From the NCBI GenBank assembly GCA_003648815.1, contig QMPZ01000001.1, positions 1 through 53,372 on the forward strand: a DNA stretch of 53,372 nucleotides. The letters run 5' to 3'. The notes under the pieces were generated by a model. That model searched no databases. It saw only the letters and a program-made list of their open reading frames with translations, and was not told the origin of the DNA. Made by a program: the position numbers and the translations under genes. Below are positions 2,288-53,327 of the stretch, one piece after another (position 1 is the first letter of the stretch; every line of letters begins with the position of its first letter). The DNA comes from Candidatus Aerophobota bacterium. Its GTDB lineage: Bacteria > Aerophobota > Aerophobia > Aerophobales > B47-G16.

Positions 2288-2318
2288 CAAAGGGCGATTG
2301 AAGTTCCCCTCAAGTGTC
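2288..2318 (+). repeat. Degenerate copy of the hairpin module of the repeat family (AAAGGGCGATTGAAGTTCCCCTCAAGTGTCG)
   Basis: Aligns to the full module with internal deletions. The 3' arm CCCCTCAAGTGTCG and the tail TTTTCTTGA are intact. It starts 4 nt after the stop of the preceding gene. Confidence 0.6.
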
Positions 2319-2327
2319 GTTTTCTTG

Positions 2328-2410
2328 AAGTATAGGAACTTATAAACATTTGTTTAATAAAGGGGGAGCAGCGAAGCGTTGAGGGGGGAAAGATTCCCCC
2401 CTCAAGTGTC
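2328..2410 (+). repeat. Full copy of the AT-arm + GC-hairpin repeat element (copy A2)
   Basis: AGTATAGGAACTTATAAACATTTGTTTAATAAA + GGGGGAGCAGCGAAGCGTTGAGGGGGG-AAAGATT-CCCCCCTCAAGTGTCG. Nearly identical to 52320-52403 and 53063-53184. Confidence 0.9.
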
Positions 2411-2414
2411 GATA

Positions 2415-2462
2415 AGGGGAGCAGCGAAGCGTTGAGGGGGAAAACATCCCCCCTCAAGTGTC
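2415..2462 (+). repeat. Hairpin-only copy of the repeat element (copy A3), 4 nt after copy A2
   Basis: GGGGAGCAGCGAAGCGTTGAGGGGG-AAAACAT-CCCCCCTCAAGTGTCG. The stem is conserved and the loop differs (AAAACAT vs AAAGATT). Confidence 0.9.
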
Positions 2463-2481
2463 GTTGATAGATGAGGGGAAG

Positions 2482-6399: not shown

Positions 6400-7083
6400 A
6401 TGGACGAGCACTTGAGGGAGAGATGGCTTTTAGTTTGGGAAAAAAATAAGAAAAGGTTCTTTTTATATACCTTGTTGGTATTAGCGGTGGCGGGCATTTT
6501 AACAGGGCTTTCCATCTTTCGAAATGAGATGGACAAAAAAGCCTGGGCAAAATTTAACTTAGCCACCACTTATTTTCAGCAGGCACAAAGCAGCGAAGAT
6601 GATAAAGGAAGACTGGCTAAGTATCAAAAGGCAAAGTCCTTATACGAGGAAGTTCTTTCTCGATATCCCTGGGCTAAGGTGAGGAAGGAGGCTCTTTTCT
6701 ATCTGGGAAACTGTCTTTATTGTCTTGGAGAATACAAACAGGCAGGCCAGATTTTGCAAAAGTTTTGTAGAAGATATGAGGATGACTACTTTTTTCCCTG
6801 GGCAGAGATCAAGCTCGCCTTTGCCTACGAGCAACAGGGACAATATGAAGAGGCTATAAAGACCTATGAGGAGCTATTGAAGAAATATCCTGACAACGTA
6901 CTCGCTCCCCAAGCCCTTTTGGGAATGGCAAGATGCCTTGAGCTTCAGGGAAAGTGGAATGAGGCTCTGTCTAAGTATGAGGAGCTTGTTTCTCGCTATC
7001 CCTTATCCAGTGAGGCTGCTTTAGGTGAGGTCCAAATTCAGAGGCTAAAAGGAGAAAGAAAGGTCATTATGAGTGAAGGGTGA
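6400..7083 (+). CDS. Membrane-anchored TPR-repeat protein (YbgF/YfgM-like)
   Basis: ATG 6400 follows the upstream stop directly. One N-terminal TM helix (FFLYTLLVLAVAGILTGLSIF), then TPR-like repeats (..AL..LG.CLY.LGEY..A). The stop TGA lies within a heptamer repeat. Confidence 0.7.
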   Translation: MDEHLRERWLLVWEKNKKRFFLYTLLVLAVAGILTGLSIFRNEMDKKAWAKFNLATTYFQQAQSSEDDKGRLAKYQKAKSLYEEVLSRYPWAKVRKEALFYLGNCLYCLGEYKQAGQILQKFCRRYEDDYFFPWAEIKLAFAYEQQGQYEEAIKTYEELLKKYPDNVLAPQALLGMARCLELQGKWNEALSKYEELVSRYPLSSEAALGEVQIQRLKGERKVIMSEG

Positions 7084-7094
7084 AGAGTGAAGGG
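7074..7094 (+). repeat. Three-unit heptamer repeat TGAAGGG TGAAGAG TGAAGGG
   Basis: Same unit family as the array at 53237-53327. The 16-mer TGAGTGAAGGGTGAAG is shared with 53233-53248. Confidence 0.8.
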
Positions 7095-7127
7095 TGCGCA
7101 TAAACGCTCACCTCAAAATATCGGAGA

Positions 7128-24999: not shown

Positions 25000-26256
25000 A
25001 TGATACGCTCACCCCGGGGGGTTGAGGATATACTTCCATCTCAAGTCTCCCAATATCAATGGATTGAGAAAGAGGCTTCCTCTTTATTTTCTCTATACGG
25101 ATACGAGGAAGTCCGAACCCCTATCTTTGAAAGGGCAGAACTCTTTCTTCGGAGCTTAGGTGAGGAGACAGATGCAGGTAAGCAGATGTACATCTTCCAG
25201 GATAAGAAGGGAAGAAGGTTGGCCCTTCGTCCCGAGGCAACCGCTCCTGTGGTCAGAGCCTATCTTCAGCATAACCTGTATGGAAAGACGAGGGAGTGGA
25301 GGGTTTATTATCTGGGCTCCATGTTTAGATATGAAAGACCTCAGGCAGGCCGCTATCGCGAATTTCGGCAGATAGGAATAGAGGCGATTGGAGAGGGAAG
25401 TCCGTATCTGGATGTGGAGATAATAGAGATGGCACATCAGTTTTTCAAGAGAGTAGGTCTGGATAAGGTGGAGCTTCAACTTAACAGCATTGGATGCAGG
25501 AAGTGTCGACCTTTTTACGAGGAAAAGCTAAAGGAATATCTTAAGAAAAATATGGATCGTTTATGTCCTACCTGCCAGAGACGTTATCAATACAATGTCC
25601 TTCGCGTTCTGGACTGTAAGAACGAGAATTGTCAGCTGGTCATAAGGGAAGCCCCGTGGATAGGGGAGTATTTATGTGAGGATTGCAGTAGCCATTTTCA
25701 GAGCGTAAAAGAGGGGCTGAAAGCTCTTGGCATTAAGTTTCAGATCAACCCTCACCTGGTAAGAGGGCTGGATTATTACACTCGGACTATCTTTGAGATT
25801 ATCTCACCGGTTCTGGGAGCCCAGAATGCCATTTGTTCCGGCGGCAGATATGATGATCTAATAGAGGAGCTGGGAGGACCTTCGGTTCCCGCCATGGGAT
25901 TTGCCATGGGAGTGGAAAGGGTGCTCCTTGCCCTACGGGAAGAGAAAAAGGGAATTCCTTACAAGAGGCTTCCACTAATTTACATAGCTACCCTGGGCAG
26001 GGAAGGCTGGAGAGCTGGATATGAGCTGGCTAATCTTCTTCGCTTGAAGGAAATAAGAGTCCAGTTAAATACTTCCAAAAGAAAACTGTCCTCTCAACTC
26101 AGTTTTGCTGCCAAGAGGGGCATTCGCTGGGTGATGATCCTCGGAGAGGAGGAGGTAAAAAAGAGAAGAGTAATTTTAAGGGATATGAACTCAGGCACTC
26201 AGAAAGAACTGGAGTGGGAAAAGTTAGAGGAAAATATTGAGGAGATAAAAAGTTGA
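25000..26256 (+). CDS. hisS: Histidine--tRNA ligase
   Basis: ..LRPE.T....R.. and ..FRYERPQ.GR.REF.Q.G.E.. class II motifs. ..GGRYD.L.. HisRS signature. Confidence 0.95.
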   Translation: MIRSPRGVEDILPSQVSQYQWIEKEASSLFSLYGYEEVRTPIFERAELFLRSLGEETDAGKQMYIFQDKKGRRLALRPEATAPVVRAYLQHNLYGKTREWRVYYLGSMFRYERPQAGRYREFRQIGIEAIGEGSPYLDVEIIEMAHQFFKRVGLDKVELQLNSIGCRKCRPFYEEKLKEYLKKNMDRLCPTCQRRYQYNVLRVLDCKNENCQLVIREAPWIGEYLCEDCSSHFQSVKEGLKALGIKFQINPHLVRGLDYYTRTIFEIISPVLGAQNAICSGGRYDDLIEELGGPSVPAMGFAMGVERVLLALREEKKGIPYKRLPLIYIATLGREGWRAGYELANLLRLKEIRVQLNTSKRKLSSQLSFAAKRGIRWVMILGEEEVKKRRVILRDMNSGTQKELEWEKLEENIEEIKS

Positions 26257-52273: not shown

Positions 52274-52319
52274 AGACTTCACCCCTCATCCTTATGAGAG
52301 CTCTTACCCTTTATCTTGA

Positions 52320-52403
52320 AGTATAGGAATTTATAAACATTTGTTTAATAAAGGGGGGAGCAGCGAAGCGTTGAGGGGGGAAAGATTCCCCCCTCAAGTG
52401 TCG
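52320..52403 (+). mobile_element. 84-nt AT-arm + GC-hairpin repeat element (copy B), flanked by 9-bp direct repeats TTATCTTGA (52311-52319 / 52404-52412)
   Basis: Near-identical to 2328-2410. Extended stem CGA-AGCG-TTGAGGGGGG / CCCCCCTCAA-GTG-TCG with loop AAAGATT. Flanking repeats read directly from the sequence. Confidence 0.75.
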
Positions 52404-53014
52404 TTATCTTGATCTAATTCCACATTCCAATAAGCGACATCTAAGAAGCTTTTCCAGCTCTCCTCCTTTATATTGGCAAGGTTTTCTTTTATAAAGGTCC
52501 CCCATTCGGGTTTTTTAGGTTTACGAATAAGTCTCATTCCCGCCTCTTTCAGGGTTTTGTTCCCCTTGCGCAGATTACAGGAAATACAAGAACAAACCAC
52601 ATTCTCCCAGGTATCCTTTCCCCCTCGAGACAGAGGAACCACGTGGTCTATGTTCAGCTCTTCCGGTCTGAAGGTCTTTCCGCAATATTGGCAGGTATTT
52701 TTGTCCCTTCTATAGATATTCCTGCGGGTAAACTTCACCTCACGAGGAGGAAGTTTATCGTAGATCATTAAAAGGATAACCCGGGGGACCTTGATCTTAT
52801 AGGTGATTGTCCTTATCACATCCCCATTATCTGCGGAATTTTGAGAAAAATCCCTCCATTCCTCAAATCCGAATGTATAAAAGGAACCTCCCTCTTTTAA
52901 TACCACCTGGGCATGCCTCAGGTAAAGAAGGCAGATTGCCCTCCTTACCGAACAGACATCGATCACCTGCCACAGCTTATTTAATACCAAGACCTTAGAG
53001 TTAAGTGCCTCCAT
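52394..53014 (-). CDS. Small HNH endonuclease (widespread about 170-210 aa bacterial family with N-terminal ..VLVLN.. domain)
   Basis: HNH core CQYCG..(14)..IDHVVPLSRGG.DTWENVV..C..CNLRKG. N-terminal SKVLVLNKLWQVIDV..RRAICLL pattern. Start set to ATG 53014 because ATG 53083 lies inside the repeat element's conserved AT arm. Confidence 0.8.
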   Translation of the reverse strand: MEALNSKVLVLNKLWQVIDVCSVRRAICLLYLRHAQVVLKEGGSFYTFGFEEWRDFSQNSADNGDVIRTITYKIKVPRVILLMIYDKLPPREVKFTRRNIYRRDKNTCQYCGKTFRPEELNIDHVVPLSRGGKDTWENVVCSCISCNLRKGNKTLKEAGMRLIRKPKKPEWGTFIKENLANIKEESWKSFLDVAYWNVELDQDNDT

Positions 53015-53062
53015 TTTTGCTAACCTGATAAAATTAGACCCTTGCCTGTTCTTGTAACTTGA

Positions 53063-53184
53063 AGTATAGAAATTTATAAACACAATTTATAAACATTTGT
53101 TTAATAAAAGGGGGAGCAGCGAAGCGTTGAGGGGGTCATTCCGAAGGAATGGGCAAAAGCCTATATTTCCCCCCTCAAGTGTCG
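53063..53184 (+). mobile_element. Repeat element copy C with a 12-nt internal duplication in the AT arm and a 34-nt expanded apical loop
   Basis: AGTATAGAAATTTATAAACAcAATTTATAAACATTTGTTTAATAAAA + GGGGGAGCAGCGAAGCGTTGAGGGGG - TCATTCCGAAGGAATGGGCAAAAGCCTATATTT - CCCCCCTCAAGTGTCG, followed by TTTTCTTGA. Confidence 0.8.
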
Positions 53185-53198
53185 TTTTCTTGATGTTT

Positions 53199-53226
53199 AT
53201 TATAGACATAGATGAGCAACTGTCAA
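53199..53226 (-). promoter_or_regulatory. Near-consensus sigma70 promoter reading toward the HNH gene
   Basis: Minus strand: TTGACA (53226-53221), 16-nt spacer, TATAAT (53204-53199). The predicted TSS near 53192 is at the edge of repeat copy C. Confidence 0.6.
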
Positions 53227-53236
53227 GCAATGTGAG

Positions 53237-53327
53237 TGAAGGGTGAAGGGTGAGGGGTGAAGAGTGAAGAGTAAAGAGTAAAGAGTAAAGAGTGAAGAGT
53301 GAAGAGTGAAGGGTGAAGGGTGAGGGG
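53237..53327 (+). repeat. 13-unit tandem heptanucleotide array (TGAAGGG x2, TGAGGGG, TGAAGAG x2, TAAAGAG x3, TGAAGAG x2, TGAAGGG x2, TGAGGGG)
   Basis: Exact 7-nt periodicity read from the sequence. Unit variants are ordered AAB-CC-DDD-CC-AAB. Confidence 0.9.

Follow-up and report, generated by a model that had tools for sequence, protein, structure and literature searches.

Elements of the IS91 family insert without a target-site duplication, with the target tetranucleotide CTTG (or GTTC) lying next to oriIS, and at terIS a related tetranucleotide (CTCG or GTTC) follows one imperfect subterminal palindrome; a functional single-stranded circle is known for the family, and the ter tetranucleotide is CTCG in IS91 and the same as the target in IS801 and IS1294 (PMC13181058). 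The IS200/IS605 elements and the gene-less palindrome-associated transposable elements (PATEs) have a target-adjacent motif (TAM) at the left flank and a similar transposon-encoded motif (TEM) at the right boundary, and they excise without a scar (PMC10055086). The subject of this report is a family of small non-coding insertions recognised in 53,372 nt of a contig of a Candidatus Aerophobota bacterium (QMPZ01000001.1, positions 1 to 53,372; this whole stretch is referred to as the window), and in particular the copy, hereafter copy B, that lies between an HNH gene and prfA. Other systems also invite comparison: the target of ISDra2 is TTGAT, which resembles CTTGA; the double-strand origins of rolling-circle plasmids of the pC194/pUB110 type and of phiX174 are nicked after the G of CTTGA (CTTGATA); and the pneumococcal BOX elements are modular, of the form boxA-boxB(n)-boxC. 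We know of no family of miniature inverted-repeat transposable elements (MITEs) of the IS91 type.

At the HNH-prfA junction, direct reading of the window finds the nine nucleotides TTATCTTGA at 52311-52319 and again at 52404-52412, with 84 nt between them that include AT-rich DNA, the G-rich segment GGGGGGAGCAGCGAAGCG and a GC-rich hairpin of 10 bp (arm TTGAGGGGGG, 52371-52380; loop AAAGATT, 52381-52387; arm CCCCCCTCAA, 52388-52397). The HNH open reading frame (ORF) occupies 52394..53014 on the minus strand (206 aa from MEALNS), and its last three codons (N-D-T) and TGA stop are supplied by the right part of copy B, the stop codon (52394-52396) falling inside the 3' arm of the hairpin. A preliminary description of this DNA had read the arrangement as a small non-autonomous insertion, with the end of the HNH gene taken from the right-hand repeat copy and the adjacent element arm, and had predicted that without the element the HNH protein would end in ELDQDKG about 30 nt before prfA. 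The sequence at 52311-52412, its bracketing by the 9-mer and its hairpin are exactly as given there, the ORF bears out the origin of the last codons, and the predicted empty site exists in near-identical strains. In a protein search, P0004-P0008, which are 97-100% identical, have 205 aa and end in ELDQDKG (P0008 being a 196-aa, N-terminally truncated sequence), while P0001-P0003 (206 aa) end in ELDQDNDT. The eight contigs that encode P0004 or P0006 (L043-L050) come from eight different samples or runs and are all empty at the copy B site, which reads GAATTAGA joined directly to TCAAGATAAAGGGTAA (also given as GAATTAGA joined to TCAAGATAAAGGGTAAGAGC), with a distance of 30 nt from the stop codon to prfA. 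Aligned with these contigs, the filled allele differs from the empty one by exactly 93 nt, base-perfect, and TTATCTTGA is present once only. The HNH proteins of the empty-site strains are 99-100% identical, and four other contigs are filled; the TTAT tail of copy B is common to all filled alleles. Insertion has changed the HNH C-terminus from KG to NDT and the HNH-prfA spacer from 30 to 123 nt, so that both the C-terminus and the long spacer in this metagenome-assembled genome (MAG) are insertion artefacts.

Beyond these strains, an orthologous locus of 84% identity keeps the gene order HNH-prfA-mfd with a 27-nt HNH-prfA spacer and no element, and the more distant HNH orthologues (84%, 78% and 74% identity) have no element nearby, the distant ones lying in other gene contexts. 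The HNH gene is thus a core gene that was struck by the element. We also considered that it might be a part of the element or the nuclease that moves it, and rejected this: it is a single-copy conserved gene, and no HNH gene recurs near other copies. Copy B is a recent insertion of a small non-coding mobile element at the HNH-prfA junction, and we are nearly certain that the 84-93-nt sequence is a mobile, non-autonomous insertion. The filled and empty alleles provide direct population-level evidence of active, precise insertion and excision in an uncultivated subsurface phylum.

The exact limits of copy B are subject to one ambiguity, because the phase cannot be fixed inside the repeated 9-mer: the 93 nt that are missing from the empty-site alleles may be placed at 52320..52412 of the plus strand, while a cut after G is most likely and would make the element 52319-52411. 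With the former placing, the target motif of copy B, TTATCTTG followed by A, is at 52311..52319, and three modules follow on the plus strand: an AT-rich leader, module A (AGTATAGGAATTTATAAACATTTGTTTAATAAA, 52320..52352), which contains a weak hairpin, TAAAC-ATTT-GTTTA; an invariant hairpin unit, module B (52353..52403), composed of GGGGGGAGCAGCGAAGCG, TTGAGGGGGG, AAAGATT, CCCCCCTCAA and GTGTCG and including a GCGAAGC mini-hairpin motif; and a tail, module C (TTATCTTG(A), 52404..52412), for which the family consensus is TTTTCTTG(A) and which ends in a putative 3' cleavage motif, CTTG. Folded as single-stranded DNA (ssDNA), the region reaches -17.1 kcal/mol (z = -4.2; 0/200 shuffles fold as well), and the stem, interrupted by one bulge and one mismatch, continues into GCGAAGCG / GTGTCGT.

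Copies of the element are dispersed in other genomes. A 22-mer used in one scan of species-representative genomes hit 14 loci, which belong to Ca. Aerophobus profundus, a second Aerophobetes MAG and several MAGs that are unclassified (one hit MAG is labelled 'Clostridia' and carries a protein 66% identical to an Aerophobetes protein). One metagenome scan added 28 further loci of the window's own subfamily, many of them at the ends of contigs, where a dispersed repeat would be expected to fall. The hairpin core is identical in all 14 genome and 28 metagenome loci, and at least 38 copies share one architecture, which, together with the empty-site alleles, upholds the earlier reading of a small non-autonomous insertion. 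The elements are non-coding, measure ~83-135 nt and follow a modular plan of a variable AT-rich leader, one to three invariant hairpin units (GGGGGAGCAGCGAAGCG-TTGAGGGGG-loop-CCCCCTCAA) and a tail ending in CTTG. Read from left to right, a flank ending in T-W-W-C-T-T-G is followed by module A (A-R-G-Y-ATAGGAAWKTATAAACATTTGTTTAATAAA, ~33 nt), by one to three copies of module B (GGGGGGAGCAGCGAAGCG-TTGAGGGGGG-loop-CCCCCCTCAA-GTGTCG) linked by ATAA or ATGAA, by module C (TTTTCTTG), and by a unique right flank that usually begins with A. Only the start of the leader, RGYATAGGAAWKT, is conserved between subfamilies and its interior varies; judging from the leaders of ~10 nt in L024, L028 and L063, where the hairpin and the flanking CTTG are retained, this interior is dispensable. 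The hairpin unit, in contrast, is invariant even between lineages whose orthologous proteins are only 66-70% identical. The element has no terminal inverted repeats (TIRs): its ends, AGYATAGGAA at the left and GTGTCGTTTTC or CAAGTGTCGTTTTCTTG at the right, are unrelated, and the sole palindrome is internal, i.e., an imperfect hairpin (bulge and mismatch) that lies ~8-15 nt ahead of the 3' end and is followed by GTGTCGTTTTCTTG. Tail-to-head junctions with a single CTTGA are seen in the window (2310-2335) and in L023, L026 and L037. No match to the element was obtained in viral contigs or in plasmid and phage collections, and a literature search returned no paper with the core sequence and nothing on Aerophobetes repeats.

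In the window itself, the 26-nt core GGGGGAGCAGCGAAGCGTTGAGGGGG occurs four times against an expectation of 0, with the leader and the 3' arm recurring alongside, and the copies, at three loci, are all on the plus strand. The single element reported earlier between prfA and the HNH gene is therefore joined by two loci that had been missed, 53063-53193 and 2329-2463. The former, copy C (53063..53193, plus strand), lies directly upstream of the same HNH gene as copy B and contains a leader in which 13 nt are duplicated internally (53071-53095), a hairpin (53127-53178) whose 33-nt loop (53136-53168) is made of two mini-hairpins, and the tail TTTTCTTGA (53185-53193). Its target motif, CTTGA (53058..53062, plus strand), is single in the empty allele of L044 (CTTGTAA-CTTGA-TGTTTATTA), where the absence of the element is again base-perfect; copy C is present in eight other strains. 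The latter, copy A (2329..2463, plus strand), comprises a leader (2329-2361) and two hairpin units in tandem (2362-2411 and 2416-2463) with ATAA between them, and has an atypical right end, GTGTCG-TTGATAG. Its target was a remnant of an older hairpin unit and tail (TTCCCCTCAAGTGTCG-TTTTCTTGA, 2304..2328, plus strand), giving a tail-to-head junction, and the locus, the spacer between the genes for a DUF2334 protein and monogalactosyldiacylglycerol (MGDG) synthase, is a patchwork that is strongly rearranged between strains. In sister strains, the same spacer holds a different repeat of ~130 nt with true TIRs, AGATGGAGCTACTTTCCCC ... GGGGAAAGTAGCTCCATCT (L063 2230-2390; also L064-L066). This repeat adjoins hairpin elements, and abutting elements were also seen in L016 and L024.

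The motif TWWCTTG is found at 35 sites in the window, 29 of them genic (one being the tail of copy B itself) and six intergenic. Counting native sites only, three of five intergenic sites are occupied versus none of 28 genic sites, as would fit a specific target combined with selection that purges genic insertions. All the intergenic target motifs in the window are on the plus strand, with only three copies from which to judge a replication-strand bias. Near position ~33000 the genes of the window turn from all plus to all minus, and the GC skew passes from ~+0.2 to ~-0.15; this may be a replication-terminus-like convergence or merely strong coding-strand skew.

The junctions of the wider family were tabulated to give 33 independent right junctions and 21 left junctions. 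At the right, 23 of the 33 read TTTTCTTG after GTGTCG and a further six are one base off (CTTA, CTCG, TTCT, TTAT and similar); the near-constant sequence indicates that this right-hand stretch belongs to the element, and no base is conserved beyond it on the 3' side. The left junctions read T(20) W W C(19) T(20) T(19) G(19) A(21), with random bases further 5', so that CTTG is found in 19 of 21, the variants being CTCG and TTTA. Because the genomic T-W-W-C-T-T-G equals the 3' end of the element, an apparent flanking repeat would arise without true target duplication. The length of left-right identity varies from 4 to 9 nt across copies, with the right-hand CTTG(A) sitting in the constant tail TTTTCTTG: GTAA-CTTGA in the target of copy C and TTTT-CTTGA in its tail have only 5 nt in common, while the perfect 9-mer at copy B results from a tail in which TTAT, instead of TTTT, matches the target. 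In L018 and L021, T follows the right CTTG while the left side has A, and the joint is thus best placed after the G of CTTG. The preliminary description had left a choice between a 9-bp target duplication and a strict CTTGA target; the second is borne out by these junctions, and the first does not hold as a general rule. It had also raised the possibility that TTATCTTGA is part of the element consensus on both sides, which turns out to be true of the right-hand copy only, and the reading as an insertion stands.

Together, these features invite a comparison with the known elements that are moved as single strands. The resemblance to IS91 lies in insertion at a specific tetranucleotide without duplication (CTTG in 19 of 21 left junctions, with one CTTG kept in empty sites) and in a single imperfect subterminal palindrome followed by a target-related tetranucleotide, with CTTG at both ends and CTCG and CTTA as minor forms. 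IS91 elements, however, are ~1.5-1.8 kb long and encode TnpA, whereas no IS91-type gene was found here in 390 kb of the DNA analysed; the target motif here is longer (TWWCTTG), and the hairpin unit can be repeated in tandem. With the PATEs, which are mobilised in trans and insert 3' of a TAM of 4-5 nt, the family shares its short, non-coding form, the lack of TIRs, an apparent lack of target-site duplication, the subterminal hairpin, insertion 3' of a motif, a similar motif at the right boundary and a scarless donor joint. The IS200/IS605 elements differ in having similar hairpins at both ends, while the element here has a strong right hairpin and a weak, unrelated left one, and in guide tetranucleotides that covary with TAM and TEM, a covariation not seen here; no Y1 TnpA, TnpB or IscB was found. 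In the printed sequence of the pC194 rolling-circle origin (PMC7072734), 10 nt are identical to the empty target of copy B, TTATCTTGAT. Enzymes of the Rep type, which belong to the HUH nucleases, begin and end at the same nick sequence, as is proposed here, but the origins of pC194, pUB110 and phiX174 serve the replication of autonomous replicons, whereas these are dispersed chromosomal elements, and no Rep gene was found. Repetitive extragenic palindromic sequences (REPs) and REPINs are likewise abundant, intergenic, hairpin-forming and non-coding, and REPs are thought to be handled in trans by a single-copy HUH gene, RAYT. They differ in that this family has no GTAG/CTAC tetranucleotide, no inverted doublets (its units are in direct tandem), no Y1 gene that we could find, and, unlike most REPs, clean pairs of insertions and empty sites with a defined target motif. 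The variable number of middle units recalls BOX.

The reading that we favour, and that we hold to be somewhat probable, is that an HUH-type nuclease/transposase of single-strand DNA mobilises the element in trans; the enzyme, an ssDNA intermediate and the exact position of the cut are what we infer from the arrangement of the copies. Such an enzyme would bind the hairpin and cut the top strand twice, after the CTTG that closes the element at its 3' end and after the one that flanks its 5' end. A single-stranded circle would be released and pasted after another CTTG exposed as ssDNA, so that the new copy would be joined immediately 3' of T-W-W-C-T-T-G, and excision would restore the original sequence. 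By analogy with the systems above, this would fit recognition restricted to the 5' side, a 3' terminus with the same motif, the subterminal hairpin, which is very stable as ssDNA, the lack of inverted repeats, the scarless empty sites, the tail-to-head self-insertions, which fit self-targeting, and the size, which is presumably too small for a double-stranded circle. The best-supported kind is IS91-like or rolling-circle-Rep-like, with an IS200/IS605-like kind less likely, since the unlike ends and the dispensable leader interior fit IS91- or Rep-like logic better. The enzyme would have to act in trans, since no transposase was found near the 38 copies or in 390 kb; the earlier statement that the window holds none is sustained, all genes of the window looking like housekeeping genes.

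Several observations weigh against an HUH enzyme. No HUH gene was found, nor any recurrent ORF near the 38 copies, and tblastn searches with Y1 TnpA together with scans for Y1 and IS91-type Y2 motifs, using provisional queries and motifs, gave nothing in 324-390 kb of the DNA analysed. The left end has only the weak AT hairpin TAAAC-ATTT-GTTTA, which is unrelated to the right hairpin and is dispensed with in the short-leader copies; a left end of this kind is atypical for IS200/IS605. The orientation relative to genes is without strong bias (~20 same, 11 opposite). At two independent loci, L019 and L021 (minus strand), a TTA variant stands on both sides (left TTTA followed by A, right CTTA followed by A), and position -7 of the tail has the base of the left flank in both copy B and L033. 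Such left-right correlation, real but rare, would be expected from a short true target duplication and is unexplained by simple nicking and joining. The TTA-variant copies keep the same GGGGGGAGCA 5' of the hairpin, and no covariation of guide bases was seen among these few copies. A weak match in the transposase search, at 25055-25267 of the window, was identified as histidyl-tRNA synthetase.

The same evidence was considered in the light of the other explanations. A MITE moved by a DDE-type transposase, whether cut-and-paste or copy-paste, with a true 4-5-bp duplication (CTTG or CTTGA) at a strongly preferred site would account for the CTTG(A) that flanks nearly every copy on both sides, and both the TTA(A) variant on both sides at two loci and the 8-9 nt of left flank that equal the tail in two copies fit target copying; the family is also small, non-coding, multicopy and polymorphic for insertion, as MITEs are. 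We consider it unlikely nonetheless, since the ends (AGYATAGG and GTGTCGTTTTC) are unrelated and carry no TIRs, target conservation is one-sided and reaches 3-4 nt 5' of the repeat, where it mimics the element tail, L018 and L021 have T after the right CTTG although the left has A, and a transposase was found neither near 38 copies nor among the window genes. Nor do these places hold a recombinase, and site-specific recombination by a tyrosine or serine integrase, or by an IS110-type DEDD enzyme with a bridge RNA, using TTTTCTTGA as a shared core, strikes us as improbable. It would account for a core common to both sides, for the precision of the empty sites and for tail-to-head junctions that resemble a circle junction or tandem integration, and heteroduplex in the overlap could explain why tail bases are sometimes converted to the target version (copy B, L033). 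Yet such enzymes and bridge RNAs read both half-sites, whereas the 3' side of the target here is unconserved; the identity of target and junction is just 5 bp at copy C, and a double-stranded circle of 84-93 bp would seem physically implausible. In addition, inspection by eye found no RYYYAAC/GTTRRRY of an integron attC site and no dif-like half-sites for Xer, and both identities were set aside.

Spread without an enzyme, by template switching or gene conversion at TWWCTTGA microhomologies, with homologous recombination between strains producing the pattern of presence and absence, is an account to which we give little credence. It is in keeping with a left-right identity whose length varies between 5 and 9 nt, with the exchange, inversion and resizing of loops at orthologous copies (see below), which shows that copies interact by conversion or template switching, and with contigs that are chimeric across copies (L053; L021 versus L035). 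It is at odds with more than 20 independent junctions that use the same 8-nt motif with single-base precision, and with a 26-nt hairpin segment that is invariant across lineages of ~66-70% identity, which argues for protein recognition. Finally, a native cis-regulatory structure of the HNH-prfA operon, i.e., a terminator, attenuator or mRNA-stabilising hairpin, is refuted as the origin of the sequence and, as an alternative to insertion, extremely improbable. The hairpin is strong, GC-rich and intergenic, and REP-like elements can have such side effects, but it is missing from eight near-identical strains and from the 84%-identical locus with its 27-nt spacer, it replaces the end of the HNH ORF, and the family occurs in both orientations relative to genes. 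As the preliminary description had already held, it is no native terminator: no terminator-like site (GC stem with a T run) was scored on either strand, and no Rfam family reached its gathering threshold, the best hit, sraA, scoring 22 bits (E = 1) where 56 are required.

Returning to mobilisation by an HUH enzyme, we regard the family as a new variant of a kind already known, the small non-autonomous hairpin elements of HUH type. A further-reaching proposal, which we put forward tentatively and think somewhat doubtful, is that it would be the first miniature family moved by a rolling-circle-type HUH nickase (IS91-, pC194-Rep- or relaxase-like). An invariant protein-binding hairpin and a CTTG nick motif would then suffice, any short DNA between two nick motifs could be lifted off as a circle of ssDNA and inserted after a further CTTG, the loop would be a module that is hypervariable, can be inverted and grows by GNA mini-hairpins, and the core would mark a conserved HUH enzyme of the host or of a mobile element. 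If so, MITE-like parasitism would extend to a transposase class without known miniature derivatives, and a hairpin, ~14 nt and CTTG would make up a compact substrate for a sequence-specific enzyme that nicks and joins ssDNA.

The loops of the hairpins are hypervariable. They are found in both orientations (AAGATT/AATCTT, ATGTGT/ACACAT, ATGTTT/AAACAT, and a 33-nt loop and its exact reverse complement), including at orthologous copies. All alleles of copy C share the unique 13-nt leader duplication and hence go back to one insertion event; among them, the window, L047 and L052 have a long loop of one orientation, the long loop of L045, L046, L048 and L049 is inverted (40/44 bases identical after reverse complementing versus 15/44 directly), and L051 has a short loop (ATGTTT). 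Copy B has a long loop in L052 and a short one in the other strains. The additional 27 nt, TCATTCCGAAGGAATGGGCGAAAGCCT, form two mini-hairpins and are precisely present or absent in the loop at orthologous copies (window 53136-53168; L052 copy B; L051 copy C); this module has no flanking repeats that would explain the indel. In other lineages the loops contain one to three C-GNA-G or T-GNA-A mini-hairpins, and C-GNA-G / GCGAAGC motifs are carried by the hairpin unit and the loop inserts alike. The loop changes arose in place, either because one arm recombined or switched templates with the other, or through conversion by other copies. In plastid genomes, hairpin loops that lie between short inverted repeats are known to undergo small inversions recurrently (e.g., PMC12371153), and no special enzyme is thus required for the loop flips seen here. 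An RNA function that depends on the orientation of the loop is unlikely, since this orientation is not kept. The flipping of loops and the accretion of mini-hairpins make the family a natural data set on palindrome-driven mutation in bacteria.

Further features of these loci were recorded. The HNH-prfA-mfd genes have a sigma-70-type promoter, TTGACA-16-TATAAT (12/12), at 53226..53199 on the minus strand, which is context and not part of the element. Copy C lies a few nucleotides downstream of the -10 box and is therefore placed, in antisense, in the 5' leader of the HNH-prfA-mfd transcript. A promoter within the leader of the element was considered and dropped: the minus-strand match covers only 9/12 positions, and the consensus of the family does not preserve it. 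In two Aerophobetes lineages an element lies directly upstream of argC (L009 5620-5775 and L035 100-380), the argC products being ~70% identical; the insertion may be old, or the target may have been used more than once. A repeat of ~250 nt, seen in three copies in Ca. Aerophobus profundus (L005 4100-4350, L013 5300-5560 and L014 5000-5238), is built around the identical hairpin core but has other flanks; in L005, 16 nt (CCGACCCCCGTTTGAC) are directly repeated, once ~30 nt upstream of it and once at its right end. In L053 (1087-1223), and between L021 and L035, one element flank is held in common while the genes beyond the other side differ. These joins may be assembly chimeras or real recombination across copies, and they call for caution with MAGs of the group: in Aerophobetes assemblies, contig breaks and chimeric joins are often located at these repeats.

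The possibility of a tRNA- or tmRNA-like RNA, suggested by a tRNA-like 3' end beside the core in L004, L010 and L011, was examined with ARAGORN and Rfam and rejected in favour of a duplicated tRNA-Val 3' end beside the hairpin rather than one RNA. In L004 (2050-2350, minus strand), the tRNA-Val 3' end with ~110 nt is tandemly duplicated and the hairpin core lies between the copies; two matches to Acido-Lenti-1 RNA are located ~1 kb from this duplication. Tandem arrays of 7-nt units also recur beside the hairpin elements. Between copy C and the upstream GAF/HD gene, the window holds ~13 copies of GTGAAGG/GTGAAGA/GTAAAGA (53234-53323), and a short GTGAAGG-type array follows a TPR-like gene at 7073-7096. 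Arrays of this type occur as well in L035 (1-35) and L021 (6350-6384). The array beside copy C differs in copy number between near-identical strains, and in L043 a deletion extends from it into the element loop. In unrelated MAGs, heptamer arrays of GTTCAGN, GTTCAAG and GTTGNGA adjoin the same hairpin core (L004 1990-2260, L010 220-270 and L011 235-310).

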